This document shows positions 47,855 through 51,512 of a stretch of 52,814 nt of DNA, piece after piece; the first letter of the stretch is position 1; each line of letters starts with the position of its first letter. The stretch covers positions 1 through 52,814 of IMG/VR virus record IMGVR_UViG_3300025151_000048; one strand, 5' to 3'. Both the position numbers and the translations under genes were made by a program. The notes below the pieces were generated by a model. The model ran no database searches. It was not told where the DNA came from and saw nothing but the letters and a program-made list of their open reading frames with translations. The stretch comes from a virus. Lineage: Duplodnaviria > Caudoviricetes.

Positions 47855-47900
47855 TGATATGACGGTCTTTAGGTGAGTTCGATTCTCACCATATCAACTA
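47855..47900 (+). ncRNA. Miniature tRNA-like element (acceptor stem + T-arm only)
   Basis: TGATATG/CATATCA 7 bp, 11 nt linker, GTGAG-TTCGATT-CTCAC, then A-CTA; intergenic. Confidence 0.65.
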
Positions 47901-47919
47901 ACAATTAAAATTAAATAAA

Positions 47920-48054
47920 ATGAAAAGAAAATTTCAACACTATGTGATTACTACATTTTTAGTGTCACTGGCAACACTGGCTTTATCAGGAATTATAATG
48001 ATTTCTTATCACCTAATGTTTAACAACCCAACAATAACTTTTGGAGGATGGTAA
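47920..48054 (+). CDS. 44 aa single-TM membrane peptide (not in ORF track)
   Basis: MKRKFQHYVITTFLVSLATLALSGIIMISYHLMFNNPTITFGGW; A-rich start. Confidence 0.65.
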   Translation: MKRKFQHYVITTFLVSLATLALSGIIMISYHLMFNNPTITFGGW

Positions 48055-48320
48055 GAAATGAATATAATGGGTGGACAAATTATGCCACGTGGAGAGTAAA
48101 TTTAGAGATATTTGATAATTACCAATGGGACGATGAAGAAATTAAGAATCTAACGGTTGATTATCTTGAAGAAATGATAGAAAACTACGTATTTGACCAT
48201 CATGGTGATATGGGATTAATGGAAAGTTATGCAAGAGCATTTTTAAGTGAAGTAAATTATTACGAAATAAAACAAGAAATATTAGAAGATTATGAAAATG
48301 AAAAAAAATATAATAGATGA
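48048..48320 (+). CDS. Phage hypothetical protein (NGWTNYxTW motif)
   Basis: 90 aa; YNGWTNYATWRVNL. Confidence 0.7.
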   Translation: MVRNEYNGWTNYATWRVNLEIFDNYQWDDEEIKNLTVDYLEEMIENYVFDHHGDMGLMESYARAFLSEVNYYEIKQEILEDYENEKKYNR

Positions 48321-48612
48321 AATGGTGTTTGACACCAAAAATGACAGATGGATATTCTTAAGTGACCTAGATTCTGGTGAATTTGAATATAATAATAAAT
48401 TGGTGAAAGTATTTACTACTGATAGAGGATATAAATTTTTCCAAACTAATTGGGGAAATACTCAAATATCTTCAATATCTTGGCAAAATTGTAAAGATAT
48501 TATTAAAGATAGAACAGAAAATGCAGAACATTATGCAAAATTAGAACAATTAAGTTCAGATACTCTTGCAGAAATGTATAAAAATAACCATAATAACTGG
48601 ACAGGAGATTAA
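48292..48612 (+). CDS. Early hypothetical protein
   Basis: 106 aa ORF overlapping the upstream gene. Confidence 0.6.
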   Translation: MKMKKNIIDEMVFDTKNDRWIFLSDLDSGEFEYNNKLVKVFTTDRGYKFFQTNWGNTQISSISWQNCKDIIKDRTENAEHYAKLEQLSSDTLAEMYKNNHNNWTGD

Positions 48613-48615
48613 AAT

Positions 48616-48741
48616 ATGAAAAGAGATTTATATAGATTTGCAAAAGCAAGAAAATACGGTGAAAGAATTATATTGTGGGAAGACGAATGGTATAGAAAAT
48701 ACAATAAAAATTACAATGTAAGTGCGAAACTAAATGGATAA
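48616..48741 (+). CDS. 41 aa hypothetical peptide (not in ORF track)
   Basis: MKRDLYRFAKARKYGERIILWEDEWYRKYNKNYNVSAKLNG; fills the gap. Confidence 0.5.
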   Translation: MKRDLYRFAKARKYGERIILWEDEWYRKYNKNYNVSAKLNG

Positions 48742-48743
48742 TA
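48712..48743 (+). promoter_or_regulatory. Early promoter-like motif (copy 3)
   Basis: TACA-atgtaag-TGCG-aaactaaatg-GATAATA. Confidence 0.75.
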
Positions 48744-48750
48744 TAATTGT

Positions 48751-48939
48751 ATGAGATGTAAATGTAAAAATATAATTCCACAAGGTAGATTGCGATTAGG
48801 TTATAAAACTTGTGTAAATTGTTCAACAGTAGAAATGCATAGTTATATACCTATAATAGCAAATAAACAAATACAAGAATTGCAAATAGTTTCGCCATCA
48901 CTATCTGCGTTAGTACATAAATCATGGCGTAGAAAATAG
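48751..48939 (+). CDS. DksA/TraR-like C4 zinc-finger protein
   Basis: CKC..IPQGRL..GYKTCVNCS resembles C..C...IP..RL......C..C. Confidence 0.6.
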   Translation: MRCKCKNIIPQGRLRLGYKTCVNCSTVEMHSYIPIIANKQIQELQIVSPSLSALVHKSWRRK

Positions 48940-48943
48940 AGAA

Positions 48944-49060
48944 ATGATACAATTAATATTAAGTGACATTAGGTTTTTAATACTACAGTATAAAGACGGT
49001 AAAATAGAAATAAAAGAATTATTAAATAAATTAGAAGAATTAATAAATGAATACAATTAA
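48944..49060 (+). CDS. 38 aa hypothetical peptide (not in ORF track)
   Basis: MIQLILSDIRFLILQYKDGKIEIKELLNKLEELINEYN; fills the gap. Confidence 0.45.
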   Translation: MIQLILSDIRFLILQYKDGKIEIKELLNKLEELINEYN

Positions 49061-49247
49061 ATTTACAAGTAAAACAACATTAAAATTAAATGGTGTTGAG
49101 TATGGTGGATATGAATTAGGTGAAATACCACCAAGTTTTGGATACAAAGAAAAATTTGATGGCGTGAATGAACACGGTGAAGACAAATTTAAATATGGTA
49201 TTAACCAATGGTTTAATTATAAAGGATTAACATGGGTAATAAAGTAA
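49047..49247 (+). CDS. Early hypothetical protein
   Basis: 66 aa ORF. Confidence 0.65.
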   Translation: MNTIKFTSKTTLKLNGVEYGGYELGEIPPSFGYKEKFDGVNEHGEDKFKYGINQWFNYKGLTWVIK

Positions 49248-49453
49248 TAAAAGTAATACAATATGTCTTAGTAGGTGGAATATGTTTTATATTAGGTATA
49301 TTTTATACATTTTATAAAATTGACCAAAGAGTATGGGACGAAACCATTAATAAAGCATGGGACATAGAAAATAGAGCAATGAATTTTCCAGAGAAATCTT
49401 GTTATAATTGGCAAGATATTGAACTAATAATCTTTGGTGAAATACAAGAATAA
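49232..49453 (+). CDS. Small membrane-anchored protein
   Basis: 73 aa with an N-terminal hydrophobic helix. Confidence 0.6.
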   Translation: MGNKVIKVIQYVLVGGICFILGIFYTFYKIDQRVWDETINKAWDIENRAMNFPEKSCYNWQDIELIIFGEIQE

Positions 49454-49929: not shown

Positions 49930-50173
49930 TAGCGTAAAAAAGTATTATGAAATGAAGGAAGACGGTGAGTTTAACAACGTAGAATGGGCAAGATACATAT
50001 GGGTATTAGATTTCGAACGAGGTAAAGTATACAGATATGATATAAGAAGCAGTTGGAACCATGGTGAATGGAATCCAGATTCTGAAAAATGTGAAGAATT
50101 TTTAATAAAAATGGGTCACTCAATAGGTAATATAGAATGGATGGTATGTGCTGAAAGCGAAGTATCATACTAA
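49922..50173 (+). CDS. Early hypothetical protein
   Basis: 83 aa ORF. Confidence 0.65.
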   Translation: MSDSVKKYYEMKEDGEFNNVEWARYIWVLDFERGKVYRYDIRSSWNHGEWNPDSEKCEEFLIKMGHSIGNIEWMVCAESEVSY

Positions 50174-50174
50174 T

Positions 50175-50206
50175 TACAAAGCAAATGCGAATAAAAAACG
50201 ATAATA
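50175..50206 (+). promoter_or_regulatory. Early promoter-like motif (copy 4)
   Basis: TACA-aagcaaa-TGCG-aataaaaaac-GATAATA. Confidence 0.75.
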
Positions 50207-50217
50207 AAATAAAACAA

Positions 50218-50448
50218 ATGCAAACATTATATCAAAGACTAAAACCAAATCTTAAAGTTAAACTTAAATACAATTCAATTAAGTACAAAGAAGGTCCAAG
50301 ACAAGTAATTGCAGAGTTACATAGATTTCATAACTACTCTGAATTAACTGTTGGAACTGTTAAAGACTTGGTATTATATTCAGATATAGATGACAGAAGA
50401 TGGGACTCTATTGACTGGAGATATGGTGATAAATTATTTAACAATTAA
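50218..50448 (+). CDS. Early hypothetical protein (start revised from 50185)
   Basis: The ATG at 50185 lies inside the promoter motif; the in-frame ATG at 50218 has an A-rich context. Confidence 0.6.
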   Translation: MQTLYQRLKPNLKVKLKYNSIKYKEGPRQVIAELHRFHNYSELTVGTVKDLVLYSDIDDRRWDSIDWRYGDKLFNN

Positions 50449-50459
50449 AATAAAGGATT

Positions 50460-50912
50460 ATGAGTAAAAAATTATTAACAGAAGACCTTATTCTCAAAAA
50501 ATTATTTGATAAAGGCATTAGAGAGCCGGGAACTTTCGAAATTGATGATGTATTAGATGACTTATTAAGTCATTATGGTGCAGAAATAAGAGATGACTGG
50601 GGCGGTTCATTTAATATATGGTTTTATACTGAATCAACTACTGATGGGTATGAAGTATATGTTGCAACAGAAAATGAAACTAGCCCATATATTGGCGAAG
50701 ATGTATATTATTATGAAAATGATTGGCTTGAAAAATTACCTAATGCAATTATTGATGGTTTATCTATCCATTTAGATAATTATCATAGAGATGATTATGC
50801 ATTTGAAGATGCAATAAATGAGGTATATGATATATATTGGAATGATATGAAAGAAGATGTTGAATCTGAGTTAATCGAAGAAGGTTATAGTTGGCCATCT
50901 AAAGATGAATAA
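50460..50912 (+). CDS. Highly acidic early protein (possible nucleic-acid mimic)
   Basis: 150 aa, very Asp/Glu-rich with many aromatic residues. Confidence 0.6.
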   Translation: MSKKLLTEDLILKKLFDKGIREPGTFEIDDVLDDLLSHYGAEIRDDWGGSFNIWFYTESTTDGYEVYVATENETSPYIGEDVYYYENDWLEKLPNAIIDGLSIHLDNYHRDDYAFEDAINEVYDIYWNDMKEDVESELIEEGYSWPSKDE

Positions 50913-50917
50913 ACAAA

Positions 50918-51003
50918 GGGCGTGAAATGGTTAGACATTGGCAATTACTTTTAATCGAAGGAAAAGCAATGTAACGCAGGTTCGATTCCTGCCACGTCCA
51001 CTA
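50918..51003 (+). ncRNA. tmRNA-like tRNA-like domain without mRNA domain (mini-tmRNA)
   Basis: GGGCGTG/CACGTCC with G3-U70 and A73; stemless D loop AAATGGTTAGAC; helix ACATTG/CAATGT; T-arm GCAGG-TTCGATT-CCTGC. Confidence 0.65.
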
Positions 51004-51005
51004 AA

Positions 51006-51419
51006 TGGAGTGTAAGTCGTTCCCGAAAACCGGCCCACCGGAAATCGGGGCATCTCCAAAGAGTAGTAATCGATTTAAAACTAATGCGCTACTCAGGGTT
51101 GGTGACTCCCAAGACAAATCACATTAGGGACTAAGTGCCGATATGTGAATCACCTGTAATAAGAAGAGACTGCTGGGGTTTCTTCCCCCTAAAATATAAT
51201 GGGTTAAAACACGAAGGACGGAATAATATAGTGGCTACTAAGCGGATACGCACAAAACCACAAATTTCTCAACTTGGTAAACGTGAGTCAGGTCAATGAG
51301 TTAGATATTAGACCTCAGAAAGCGTGGGTACGTGCACAGTGCCACCCAAAAATACTATAGGTGTGGGCACGCGTGCGGTGCTGTTACTTGACCTGAGAAA
51401 AGACGTACAAGCACACCTA
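51006..51419 (+). ncRNA. ~415 nt structured ncRNA between the mini-tmRNA and the tRNA
   Basis: No ORF of 60 aa or more; GC-richer; helices TGGAG/CTCCA, GAGTAG/CTACTC, TCACAT/ATGTGA, GAAGAGAC/GTTTCTTC, TAGGTGTG/CACACCTA, TCAGGTCAA/TTGACCTGA. Confidence 0.6.
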
Positions 51420-51425
51420 AAATAT

Positions 51426-51499
51426 GGCGGGATGGAGCAGATGGTCAGCTCGCGAGCCTCATAAGCTCGAGGTCGTAGGTTCGAATCCTACTCCCGCAC
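51426..51499 (+). tRNA. tRNA with CAU anticodon (Met, initiator-like body), CCA not encoded
   Basis: Full cloverleaf: GGCGGGA/TCCCGCA, D stem GAGC/GCTC, anticodon arm CGAGC-CTCATAA-GCTCG, T-arm GTAGG-TTCGAAT-CCTAC. Confidence 0.9.
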
Positions 51500-51512
51500 C
51501 TAAATTAAAATT

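Follow-up and report, generated by a model that had tools for sequence, protein, structure and literature searches.

The stretch of DNA analysed here, called the window in what follows, is a marine phage contig of 52,814 nucleotides (nt) (Duplodnaviria, Caudoviricetes; IMG/VR record IMGVR_UViG_3300025151_000048, positions 1 to 52,814), which is incomplete, the genome in hand consisting of this contig alone. Late and structural genes occupy its minus strand up to position 45695, and short early genes lie on the plus strand from about 47150 onwards. All in gaps between plus-strand open reading frames (ORFs) of this early region, we found four elements, E1 to E4, that have the acceptor stem and T arm of a tRNA in common: a minimal mimic (E1), a longer mimic with its own 5' domain (E2), an element that corresponds to the tRNA-like domain (TLD) of transfer-messenger RNA (tmRNA) (E3) and a tRNA-Met (E4), with a non-coding stretch between the last two. 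The elements and their parts are as follows, with the basis of the assignment in brackets:

47855-47900, + strand: E1, minimal tRNA mimic (sequence and homologue alignment)
47855-47861, + strand: E1, 5' strand of the acceptor stem
47862-47872, + strand: E1, 11-nt GG linker
47873-47889, + strand: E1, T arm
47890-47896, + strand: E1, 3' strand of the acceptor stem
47897, + strand: E1, discriminator A
47898-47900, + strand: E1, CTA
49453-49584, + strand: E2, predicted 5' domain with a long hairpin and a second small hairpin (RNAalifold consensus); closing helix formed by the 5' end and a palindromic word further inside (near 49543-49548)
49585-49721, + strand: E2, predicted 3' domain, a cloverleaf-like tRNA mimic (comparative pairing)
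49585-49591, + strand: E2, predicted 5' strand of the acceptor stem, followed by UAUGG, a variable arm and an invariant 4-bp mini arm
49694-49710, + strand: E2, T arm
49711-49717, + strand: E2, 3' strand of the acceptor stem
49718, + strand: E2, discriminator G
49719-49721, + strand: E2, CTA
50918-51003, + strand: E3, predicted mini-tmRNA with the TLD only (Rfam tmRNA alignment)
50918-50924 with 50993-50999, + strand: E3, acceptor stem with G3.U70, enclosing a D-loop analogue and a capped P2 hairpin
50976-50992, + strand: E3, T arm
51000, + strand: E3, A73
51001-51003, + strand: E3, CTA
51004-51425, + strand: non-coding, GC-richer stretch of 422 nt, a mosaic of hairpin modules (GC content, local comparison)
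51426-51499, + strand: E4, tRNA-Met (anticodon CAT), followed by C-T-A (ARAGORN, Rfam)

The T-loop word GTTCGAWTC is present four times in the 52,814 bases, always on the plus strand (47877, 49698, 50980, 51479), compared to an expectation of 0.18 in shuffled sequence, and none of 100 shuffles reached four copies. Each copy forms the loop of a 5-bp hairpin and is followed by a 7-nt strand complementary to an upstream strand, one further base and CTA. An earlier examination of the letters without database searches (the sequence-only reading) had proposed a family of four tRNA top-half modules within the early transcript, starting at 47855, 49453, 50918 and 51426 and sharing a 7-bp acceptor stem and an N-CTA end. 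The four elements are directly visible in the sequence at these places, and N-CTA follows all of them. In contrast, the 7-bp acceptor stem holds for E1 and E3 (7/7 pairs each) but not for E4, which has six pairs and a G x A mismatch at 1:72, and for E2 the partner strand had to be revised, as discussed below. The family itself proved to be real and conserved, with the correction that E3 is not a generic top half but the TLD of a tmRNA. That standard annotation would miss the three non-canonical elements was foreseen correctly: ARAGORN and Rfam at gathering scores call E4 as tRNA-Met and nothing else, E1, E2 and E3 being called neither by ARAGORN nor by the Rfam tRNA model RF00005 or any other model at its gathering score. 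Even with the Rfam threshold relaxed to E <= 10, the region 47700-51700 gave only tRNA, a sub-threshold tmRNA match and noise, and the same holds for five relatives at E <= 0.05. The long RNA stretches also stand out by their GC content, which peaks at 0.47 (49500-49699) and 0.42-0.52 (50900-51499, including the 422-nt stretch) compared to about 0.26-0.32 in the genes, flanking ones included.

With regard to transcription, a promoter-like motif is repeated in the early region:

47107-47127, + strand: promoter-like motif, exact copy
47492-47512, + strand: promoter-like motif, exact copy
48723-48743, + strand: promoter-like motif, exact copy
50186-50206, + strand: promoter-like motif, exact copy
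52277-52297, + strand: promoter-like motif, fifth of five copies, with two mismatches

Allowing up to two mismatches, the motif has 10 matches in the window against 2.58 expected. No copy lies directly upstream of any element, and the distance from the nearest upstream copy is 363 nt for E1, 730 nt for E2 and 732 nt for E3. Therefore, these three should be parts of multi-gene transcripts, which agrees with the proposed location of the elements inside early units. E1 and E3 start 5-6 nt past the preceding stop codon, and E1, E2 and E4 end 12-20 nt ahead of the next start codon. The arrangement is that of a processing module, namely a coaxial stack of acceptor stem and T arm with a tRNA-type T loop, embedded in a predicted longer transcript. 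Upstream of the early genes, the region in which the late and early blocks diverge (46400-47100) has a raised GC content and a strong strand asymmetry.

For comparison, we recovered 10 viral contigs via the neighbouring chaperonin gene, which is 66-81% identical to that of the window at the amino-acid level, and in these contigs T-arm elements are located upstream of the chaperonin gene on the same strand. In addition, at least 119 stretches in the viral collection match a pattern built from the 3' end of E3 and 21 match a pattern built from the 3' region of E2. Since local BLAST finds early-gene homologues common to the window and most of the contigs matched in this way, these belong to one lineage, with contigs of roughly 20-70 kb; related loci are designated by L and a number.

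Aligned to the Rfam tmRNA model (RF00023), E3 scores 41.9 bits (E 1.6e-14), which is below the gathering score of 47. The alignment covers the first and last positions of the model (1-38 and 327-374 of 374), the 288 positions in between being replaced by 7 nt. In common with bacterial tmRNA, E3 has the acceptor stem (7/7 paired, with G1-C72, G2-C71, G3.U70 and A73), the D-loop analogue with its GG, the base of helix P2, the T arm and the discriminator. It thus combines a tRNA-like domain with alanine identity (G3.U70, A73) and differs from bacterial tmRNA in that the mRNA-like domain with resume codon, tag frame and pseudoknots is missing. Judged by this alignment, E3 is the TLD of a tmRNA without the message part. 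It also corresponds to the TLD-only phage ssrA of the DS6A type, having 83 nt up to the discriminator and the capped hairpin as the sole addition.

Elements of this kind are widespread, as at least 125 stretches match the E3 pattern in the viral loci and the window. Among the matches listed, 84 of 125 have a fully complementary 5' strand starting with GGG at 20-119 nt upstream, ordinary tRNA-Ala accounting for five of them. In a further 23 of 125 it lies 200-379 nt upstream; these represent full-length tmRNA genes, for several of which ARAGORN predicts tags. The other 18 of 125 show no detectable 5' strand. After removal of duplicates, at least about 60 distinct TLD-only sequences remain, which fall into three core subfamilies. 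Searching one genome each of 185,579 prokaryote species with the same pattern gave 69 stretches, comprising 41 full-length tmRNA genes, 15 matches without 5' strand and 13 short ones, the latter consisting, by eye, of about five TLD-only elements of the window type on small contigs of metagenome-assembled genomes, six tRNA-Ala and two unclear cases. As the matches in prokaryote genomes are mostly full tmRNA genes, the short form is essentially viral. ARAGORN calls none of the E3-type elements of the relatives, and the four that were aligned to the Rfam tmRNA model score 32.4-45.2 bits, all below the cut-off. L012, L025, L035 and L085 contain full tmRNA genes that are shortened to 244-281 nt and have predicted tags; these are possible intermediates between the full-length and the TLD-only forms.

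The pairing of E3 was assessed in an alignment (A4) of 32 hand-picked sequences out of 75 unique short elements, 66-90 nt in length, from which tRNA-Ala-like sequences and parts of full tmRNAs were left out. Apart from position 69, the 3' acceptor strand was prescribed by the search pattern, as were the T loop, the tail and one pair of the T stem, so that six pairs were held. Five of the 12 pairs change on both sides (4:69 and four T-stem pairs), and pair 4:69 alone occurs as C-G (14), A-U (8), G-C (8) and U-A (2), while 5:68 is invariant despite being free in the search. The covariation score is 0.411 compared to 0.092 in shuffled alignments (0/500). All 32 sequences have G3.U70, of which U70 was fixed by the pattern and G3 was free.

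E1 is the smallest element, with 43 nt up to the discriminator, a fully paired acceptor stem and a 5-bp T stem; its homologues in related loci mostly have a 9-nt linker. In about 1.3 Mb of related loci, scanned without any requirement for the tail, we found 35 unique short-linker elements, whereas about 0.1 would be expected by chance according to our own estimate, which derives from how rare the T-loop word is and how likely six pairs are. The trailer behind them is N-CTA in 24, N-CAA in four and CCA in one of the 35, and the first two together (28/35) compare to a background frequency of 3.9%. An N-C-T/A-A trailer is also carried by the tRNA-Met genes of the relatives, and the E2 homologues have ACTA or ACAA.

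The alignment of the E1 class (A3) comprises 21 of the 26 rows of a preceding alignment (A2), as L055, L129, L077:8714-8763, L070:2211-2260 and L141:2074-2123 were dropped because of a register shift by MAFFT, although each of these five pairs 6-7 of 7 positions in the scan of related loci; in the rows of L007 and L067 the T stem is off by one column and was scored as unpaired. Across the 21 unique sequences, 11 of 12 pairs change on both sides, and the covariation score of 0.676 compares to 0.213 for shuffled alignments (0/500) and drops to 0.125 or less if the partner is slid by 1-3 columns. The GG of the linker is invariant, pair 7:66 is usually non-standard (18/21), and the acceptor sequences are without alanine identity. 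Several copies are located downstream of homologues of one same ORF. In two loci a structured-looking, conserved stretch lies just upstream of E1-type elements (L008, about 4230-4150, minus strand; L005, about 7470-7390, minus strand), which is absent from the window.

For E2, the comparison changes the architecture. The sequence-only reading had taken the strand at 49453 as the 5' side of the acceptor stem, enclosing an insert of about 230 nt, and in the window 49453-49459 does indeed pair with 49711-49717 at 7/7 positions. However, in the 10 other unique homologues that have the 5' motif (a spurious low-scoring match in L133 was left out of this count) only 4-6 of 7 positions pair. The RNAalifold consensus of six homologues instead gives the 3' strand a partner further inside (49585-49591 in the window) and pairs the 5' end with the palindromic word, and this closing helix of the 5' domain is compensated at two pairs in L141. 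The internal partner is found at one conserved place in 16/16 unique homologues, giving a domain of 68-137 nt, and its positions 1-6 are paired in 16/16, a pairing that was demanded by the filter. Within the domain, the acceptor stem shows one compensatory change (U-A in L136) and three wobble changes, and three T-stem pairs have changes on both sides. At minimum energy, the L132 domain folds into a cloverleaf with acceptor stem, a variable arm after UAUGG, the invariant 4-bp mini arm and T arm, and the L135 homologue is called a tRNA of unknown type by ARAGORN. The 5' domain has a fold z-score of -2.54.

Because of the weak pairing of the 49453 strand in relatives, the conserved internal partner and the RNAalifold consensus, an insert of about 102 nt is more likely than one of about 230 nt; we therefore dropped 49453 as the acceptor strand in favour of 49585, and comparative pairing makes it more likely that the E2 of the window has two parts, a 5' hairpin domain of 132 nt and, behind it, a tRNA mimic of 137 nt. 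Two further candidates suggested by eye were rejected, a hammerhead ribozyme (the second core element is absent) and an RNA with a short tag frame (the apparent frames stem from repeated palindromic words). The stop codon (49451-49453) of the ORF at 49232-49453 overlaps the first base of the 5' domain, and a cut at 49453 would leave its message without a complete stop codon. Compensatory substitutions, whose absence had been named in advance as the result that would count against the proposal, are thus present in the classes of E1, E2 and E3.

The fourth element is the only one with the features of a canonical tRNA: ARAGORN predicts tRNA-Met (CAT) at 51426-51500, and the Rfam model RF00005 gives 58.4 bits compared to a cut-off of 29. 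A tRNA-Met is also present at the loci of relatives. The mismatch at 1:72 and a pair A11:U24 are what we take to be initiator-like traits; among the tRNA-Met of relatives, most have U1-A72, and the anticodon stem of a few contains three G-C pairs. The 422-nt stretch in front of E4 has no match in Rfam. L070 and L077 contain conserved parts of it in another arrangement, and a likeness to E3 inserts seen by eye fails blastn-short at E <= 1e-3, so that no claim is made here. Taken together, the four elements are real and represent conserved structured tRNA mimics in related viral contigs, and it is very probable that they are functional RNA modules.

The stack of acceptor stem and T arm, together with the elbow, is the part of a tRNA that is recognised by RNase P, by the enzymes of 3' maturation and by the CCA-adding enzyme. 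The elements share this stack, usually a GG able to mimic the D-loop contact, and the N-C-U/A-A trailer. As the tRNA enzymes read the stack and the elbow, the modules are expected to be excised and to receive CCA ends, and by analogy we consider maturation by tRNA-processing enzymes probable. In the overall explanation that we tend to favour, tRNA-shaped modules would be co-transcribed with the early genes and host RNase P would cut at the 5' side of each module, whereas the 3' side would be cut or trimmed at the trailer and CCA be added. In consequence, early transcripts would be segmented, with upstream messages ending a few bases past their stop codons and downstream messages beginning 12-20 bases ahead of their start codons, and stable small RNAs would be released (E1, the two E2 domains, E3, the 422-nt stretch and tRNA-Met).

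The mini-tmRNA has a special position in this explanation. Given its G2-C71, G3.U70 and A73, E3 should be charged by alanyl-tRNA synthetase (AlaRS) and bound by SmpB and EF-Tu; from sequence features we consider that it might or might not engage AlaRS and SmpB with equal justification. Lacking the message part, it would be unable to supply a tag template, and the most likely effect would be that it competes with the host tmRNA and damps trans-translation during infection. A molecule similar to the TLD-only ssrA is described as a strong inhibitor of tmRNA, perhaps by titration of SmpB, in the portion of Hudson, Lau and Williams 2014 considered here (PMC4131195). By this analogy, inhibition of trans-translation by E3 is conceivable and is put forward tentatively. 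That such damping would protect phage proteins is speculation; the proteins in question would be translated from processed messages with ends just past the stop codons. With their variable hairpins, E2-type and E3-type modules would moreover use the tRNA-like part as a scaffold for processing and stability.

Several points weigh against this explanation. The E1 and E2 samples were selected by a pairing filter, which inflates the percentage of paired cells (90.5% for the 21 E1 sequences), and of the pairs in the E3 alignment, in which 100% of cells are paired, only the positions left free by the search (4:69, 5:68 and four T-stem pairs) count as evidence. As single sequences, E1 (fold z-score -1.23), E4 (-1.18) and the 3' domain of E2 (-0.68) fold no better than shuffles, and the CCA end is not encoded in the elements. 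With respect to charging, the bacterial alanine identity set is given in the consulted section of a review as A73, G2-C71, G3.U70 and G4-C69 (PMC9976931), and E3 has the first three but C4-G69 in place of G4-C69. Moreover, some E3-like elements deviate at the critical pair, with A3-U70 in L098 and L023 and with G3-C70 and a U discriminator in L112:2373-2466, hence alanine charging is not universal for this scaffold. The nearest database relative, MW202828, has the same layout as the window with GroES/GroEL followed by early genes, and in its positions 40000-60850 (20.8 kb, syntenic with the early region of the window) there is neither a tRNA nor a tRNA-like module. The only hint of expression, which in itself speaks for the explanation, comes from two metatranscriptome libraries: a 197-nt contig is identical to 49460-49652 within E2 (zero differences), and a 238-nt one covers 50974-51059 and 51095-51199, that is part of E3 and the following stretch, but these are assembled contigs, from which ends, strands and levels are not readable, and RNA libraries can hold DNA; they show presence in RNA libraries and not transcription or RNA ends.

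A reading that overlaps with the favoured one, and is not mutually exclusive with it, puts the scaffold first: the top halves would mainly carry hairpin cargo, inside or just 5' of them, and lend it processing sites and protection from nucleases, with the cargo as the real effectors and the alanine and SmpB traits inherited or secondary. This is possible, although we think it rather less than probable. It would account for the fact that the TLD cores are nearly invariant while the enclosed hairpins, of about 20 to 110 nt, are wholly different in length and sequence. It also fits with the recurrence of insert modules across scaffolds (blastn-short, E <= 1e-3), as there are 12 matches between E2 interiors and E3 inserts and 13 between two E3 subfamilies (E3A and E3C), and in the L069 insert one module is nested within another. 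In the same line are the 132-nt hairpin domain directly 5' of the E2 mimic and the 422-nt mosaic directly 5' of tRNA-Met. As hairpins are common to E2-type and E3-type modules, the tRNA-like part also appears to be a scaffold for RNA cargo, and this exchange suggests such a role at the level of sequence. On the other hand, Rfam finds nothing for any module, recombination between paralogues could share modules without selection on the cargo, E1 is without any cargo, and a role confined to the scaffold does not easily account for the G3.U70 of all 32 aligned E3 sequences. A broader version appears unlikely to us: phages of marine hosts of the Flavobacteriia type would use the tRNA/tmRNA top half as a natural scaffold, with host-cut frames (the 43-nt, the cloverleaf-like and the alanine-accepting tmRNA form) holding shuffled hairpin cargo, with transcripts punctuated by them and with the mini-tmRNA shielding messages from tagging. 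Within such a scaffold reading, an alanine/SmpB frame could deliver cargo to stalled ribosomes.

The modules could also be decoys that absorb host factors or toxins acting on the acceptor end or elbow of tRNA and tmRNA and thereby protect translation, with enzymes modifying the CCA end and defence proteins with SmpB-like domains as candidate targets. The exact retention of the acceptor/T-arm half together with the loss of the anticodon half, as well as early expression by position, would suit this idea. However, the modules have no anticodon loop, the site at which the best-known defences directed against tRNA cut, and the proposal is inferential throughout, with neither a defence nor an anti-defence gene linked to it: for 10 of the early ORFs, Pfam gave nothing above the curated cut-off and one weak match to DUF7249 (22.5 bits compared to a cut-off of 27). 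Even though defence systems with SmpB-like domains have been predicted, according to the part of that work consulted (PMC10542128), we regard decoys as improbable.

Still less probable is a split or permuted tmRNA, with E3 as the acceptor piece and the tag-coding piece elsewhere, for instance in E2 or the 422-nt stretch. Two-piece tmRNAs are reported from marine phages in the section of PMC9004378 that we draw on, and there is a weak Rfam match to permuted tmRNA at 50976-51015 (17.1 bits, E 1.6), but ARAGORN, which covers permuted tmRNA, reports tRNA-Met only, no plus-strand frame of 46700-52814 of this incomplete contig has a tmRNA-style tag ending, and both acceptor strands of E3 are present in normal order. 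That the elements are decaying tRNA or tmRNA genes or integration-site fragments without function of their own is least probable of all, since, despite the ssrA 3' ends carried by ssrA-integrating phages, the 18 of 125 pattern matches (among the matches listed) without detectable 5' strand and the mostly unpaired 7:66 of E1-type elements (18/21), the elements of the window have both acceptor strands and E3 the D-loop analogue (no search aimed at integrases was made), many compensatory double changes extend over dozens of diverged contigs, G.U pairs are kept on the transcribed strand, GG linker and trailer are conserved, and several classes occur per genome in syntenic early-region gaps.

With regard to the sequencing data, the coding parts of 49400-51560 have no cover in two RNA libraries, from which nothing is concluded. 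Among the sequencing runs, the best DNA run covers a share of 0.75 of the stretch, the second 0.27 and others small shares. DNA contigs pile up on E3 and tRNA-Met, as is expected for sequences common to many co-occurring phages.

A search with the terminase places the phage closest to an uncultured podovirus (61.5% amino-acid identity) and a Flavobacterium Elemovirus (45.7%), followed by the Cellulophaga phages phi18:3, phi13:2, phi19:3 and phi38:1 (36-38%). A crAss-like affiliation, which giant ORFs and PHROG hits had suggested, was overturned by this result. A set of 50,697 phage records, queried by blastn with the entire region as well as with E3 by itself, returned generic tRNA T-arm matches only, and the single T-loop word of the Elemovirus record is located within groEL. 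In the tRNA cluster of phi38:1, five T-loop words are without tRNA annotation (record positions 36662, 36992, 37339, 37569 and 38601); they look like unusual tRNAs with anticodon arms and not like E1-type or E3-type elements.

A further marine Flavobacteriia phage, Cellulophaga phage phi14:2, resembles the window in having long early intergenic RNA regions, a tmRNA-like gene below the cut-off and an acceptor/T-arm element. According to the excerpt used here of a preprint (Drobysheva et al., bioRxiv 10.1101/2020.03.07.982082), two early intergenic regions of phi14:2 are transcribed above most genes and stay abundant, their function being unknown, and in that excerpt the region is not called a tmRNA. 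We find a tmRNA-like gene at 4031-4502, which scores 46.0 bits in Rfam, just under the cut-off, and for which ARAGORN predicts a tag; it would lie inside a highly transcribed region if g005 of the paper is the removed ORF 3590-3910. A second acceptor/T-arm element, at about 1762-1853, is located in another early intergenic region. Unlike the phage studied here, phi14:2 belongs to another family (Crassvirales), and its tmRNA-like gene is of full length with a predicted tag.

The closest known counterpart of E3 is the TLD-only ssrA of mycobacteriophage DS6A, an entry of the tmRNA Website as cited in the consulted portion of Hudson, Lau and Williams 2014 (PMC4131195). Both are encoded by phages and contain little beyond the TLD of tmRNA and no tag part, and titration of SmpB is what is proposed. 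Compared with the description of the DS6A molecule, which is the form in which it is known here, E3 belongs to another host phylum and phage lineage, is one of at least about 60 variants from uncultivated marine phages, has a variable capped hairpin and no encoded CCA, and is accompanied by two other classes of mimics. E3 thus adds to the TLD-only tmRNA known from DS6A a large, undescribed marine family. In the literature, we found no description of E1-type or E2-type elements, of a TLD-only tmRNA in Flavobacteriia phages, of the shared trailer or of insert exchange.

Examples of tRNA-like processing signals are mitochondrial tRNA punctuation, the mascRNA at the 3' end of MALAT1 and the stable RNAs of the T4 tRNA cluster. 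Like these, E1 to E3 are tRNA-shaped elements within longer transcripts that could be excised by tRNA-maturation enzymes. They differ in being elements of bacterial viruses, with a minimal form of 43 nt, a conserved GG linker and a conserved N-C-U/A-A trailer. Engineered tRNA scaffolds enclose the desired RNA in a tRNA frame so that the cell processes and protects it; the variable inserts of E2-type and E3-type elements have this layout and would be a natural phage version of it on a top half of tmRNA type.

The exchangeable inserts may therefore offer a natural analogue of the tRNA scaffold of RNA engineering, with at least about 60 natural variants of a compact frame that tolerate about 20 to 110 nt. 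The mini-tmRNA class provides a direct way to test whether phages shut off the ribosome rescue of their host, an idea for which the sources used here offer a single database entry (DS6A) and a single inhibition experiment known via citation. Transcript cutting, if true, would give bacterial viruses a counterpart of tRNA punctuation. The three element classes would be recovered by covariance models derived from our alignments, and if processing of the elements occurs as predicted, annotation pipelines overlook a layer of small-RNA genes in a common group of marine phages.

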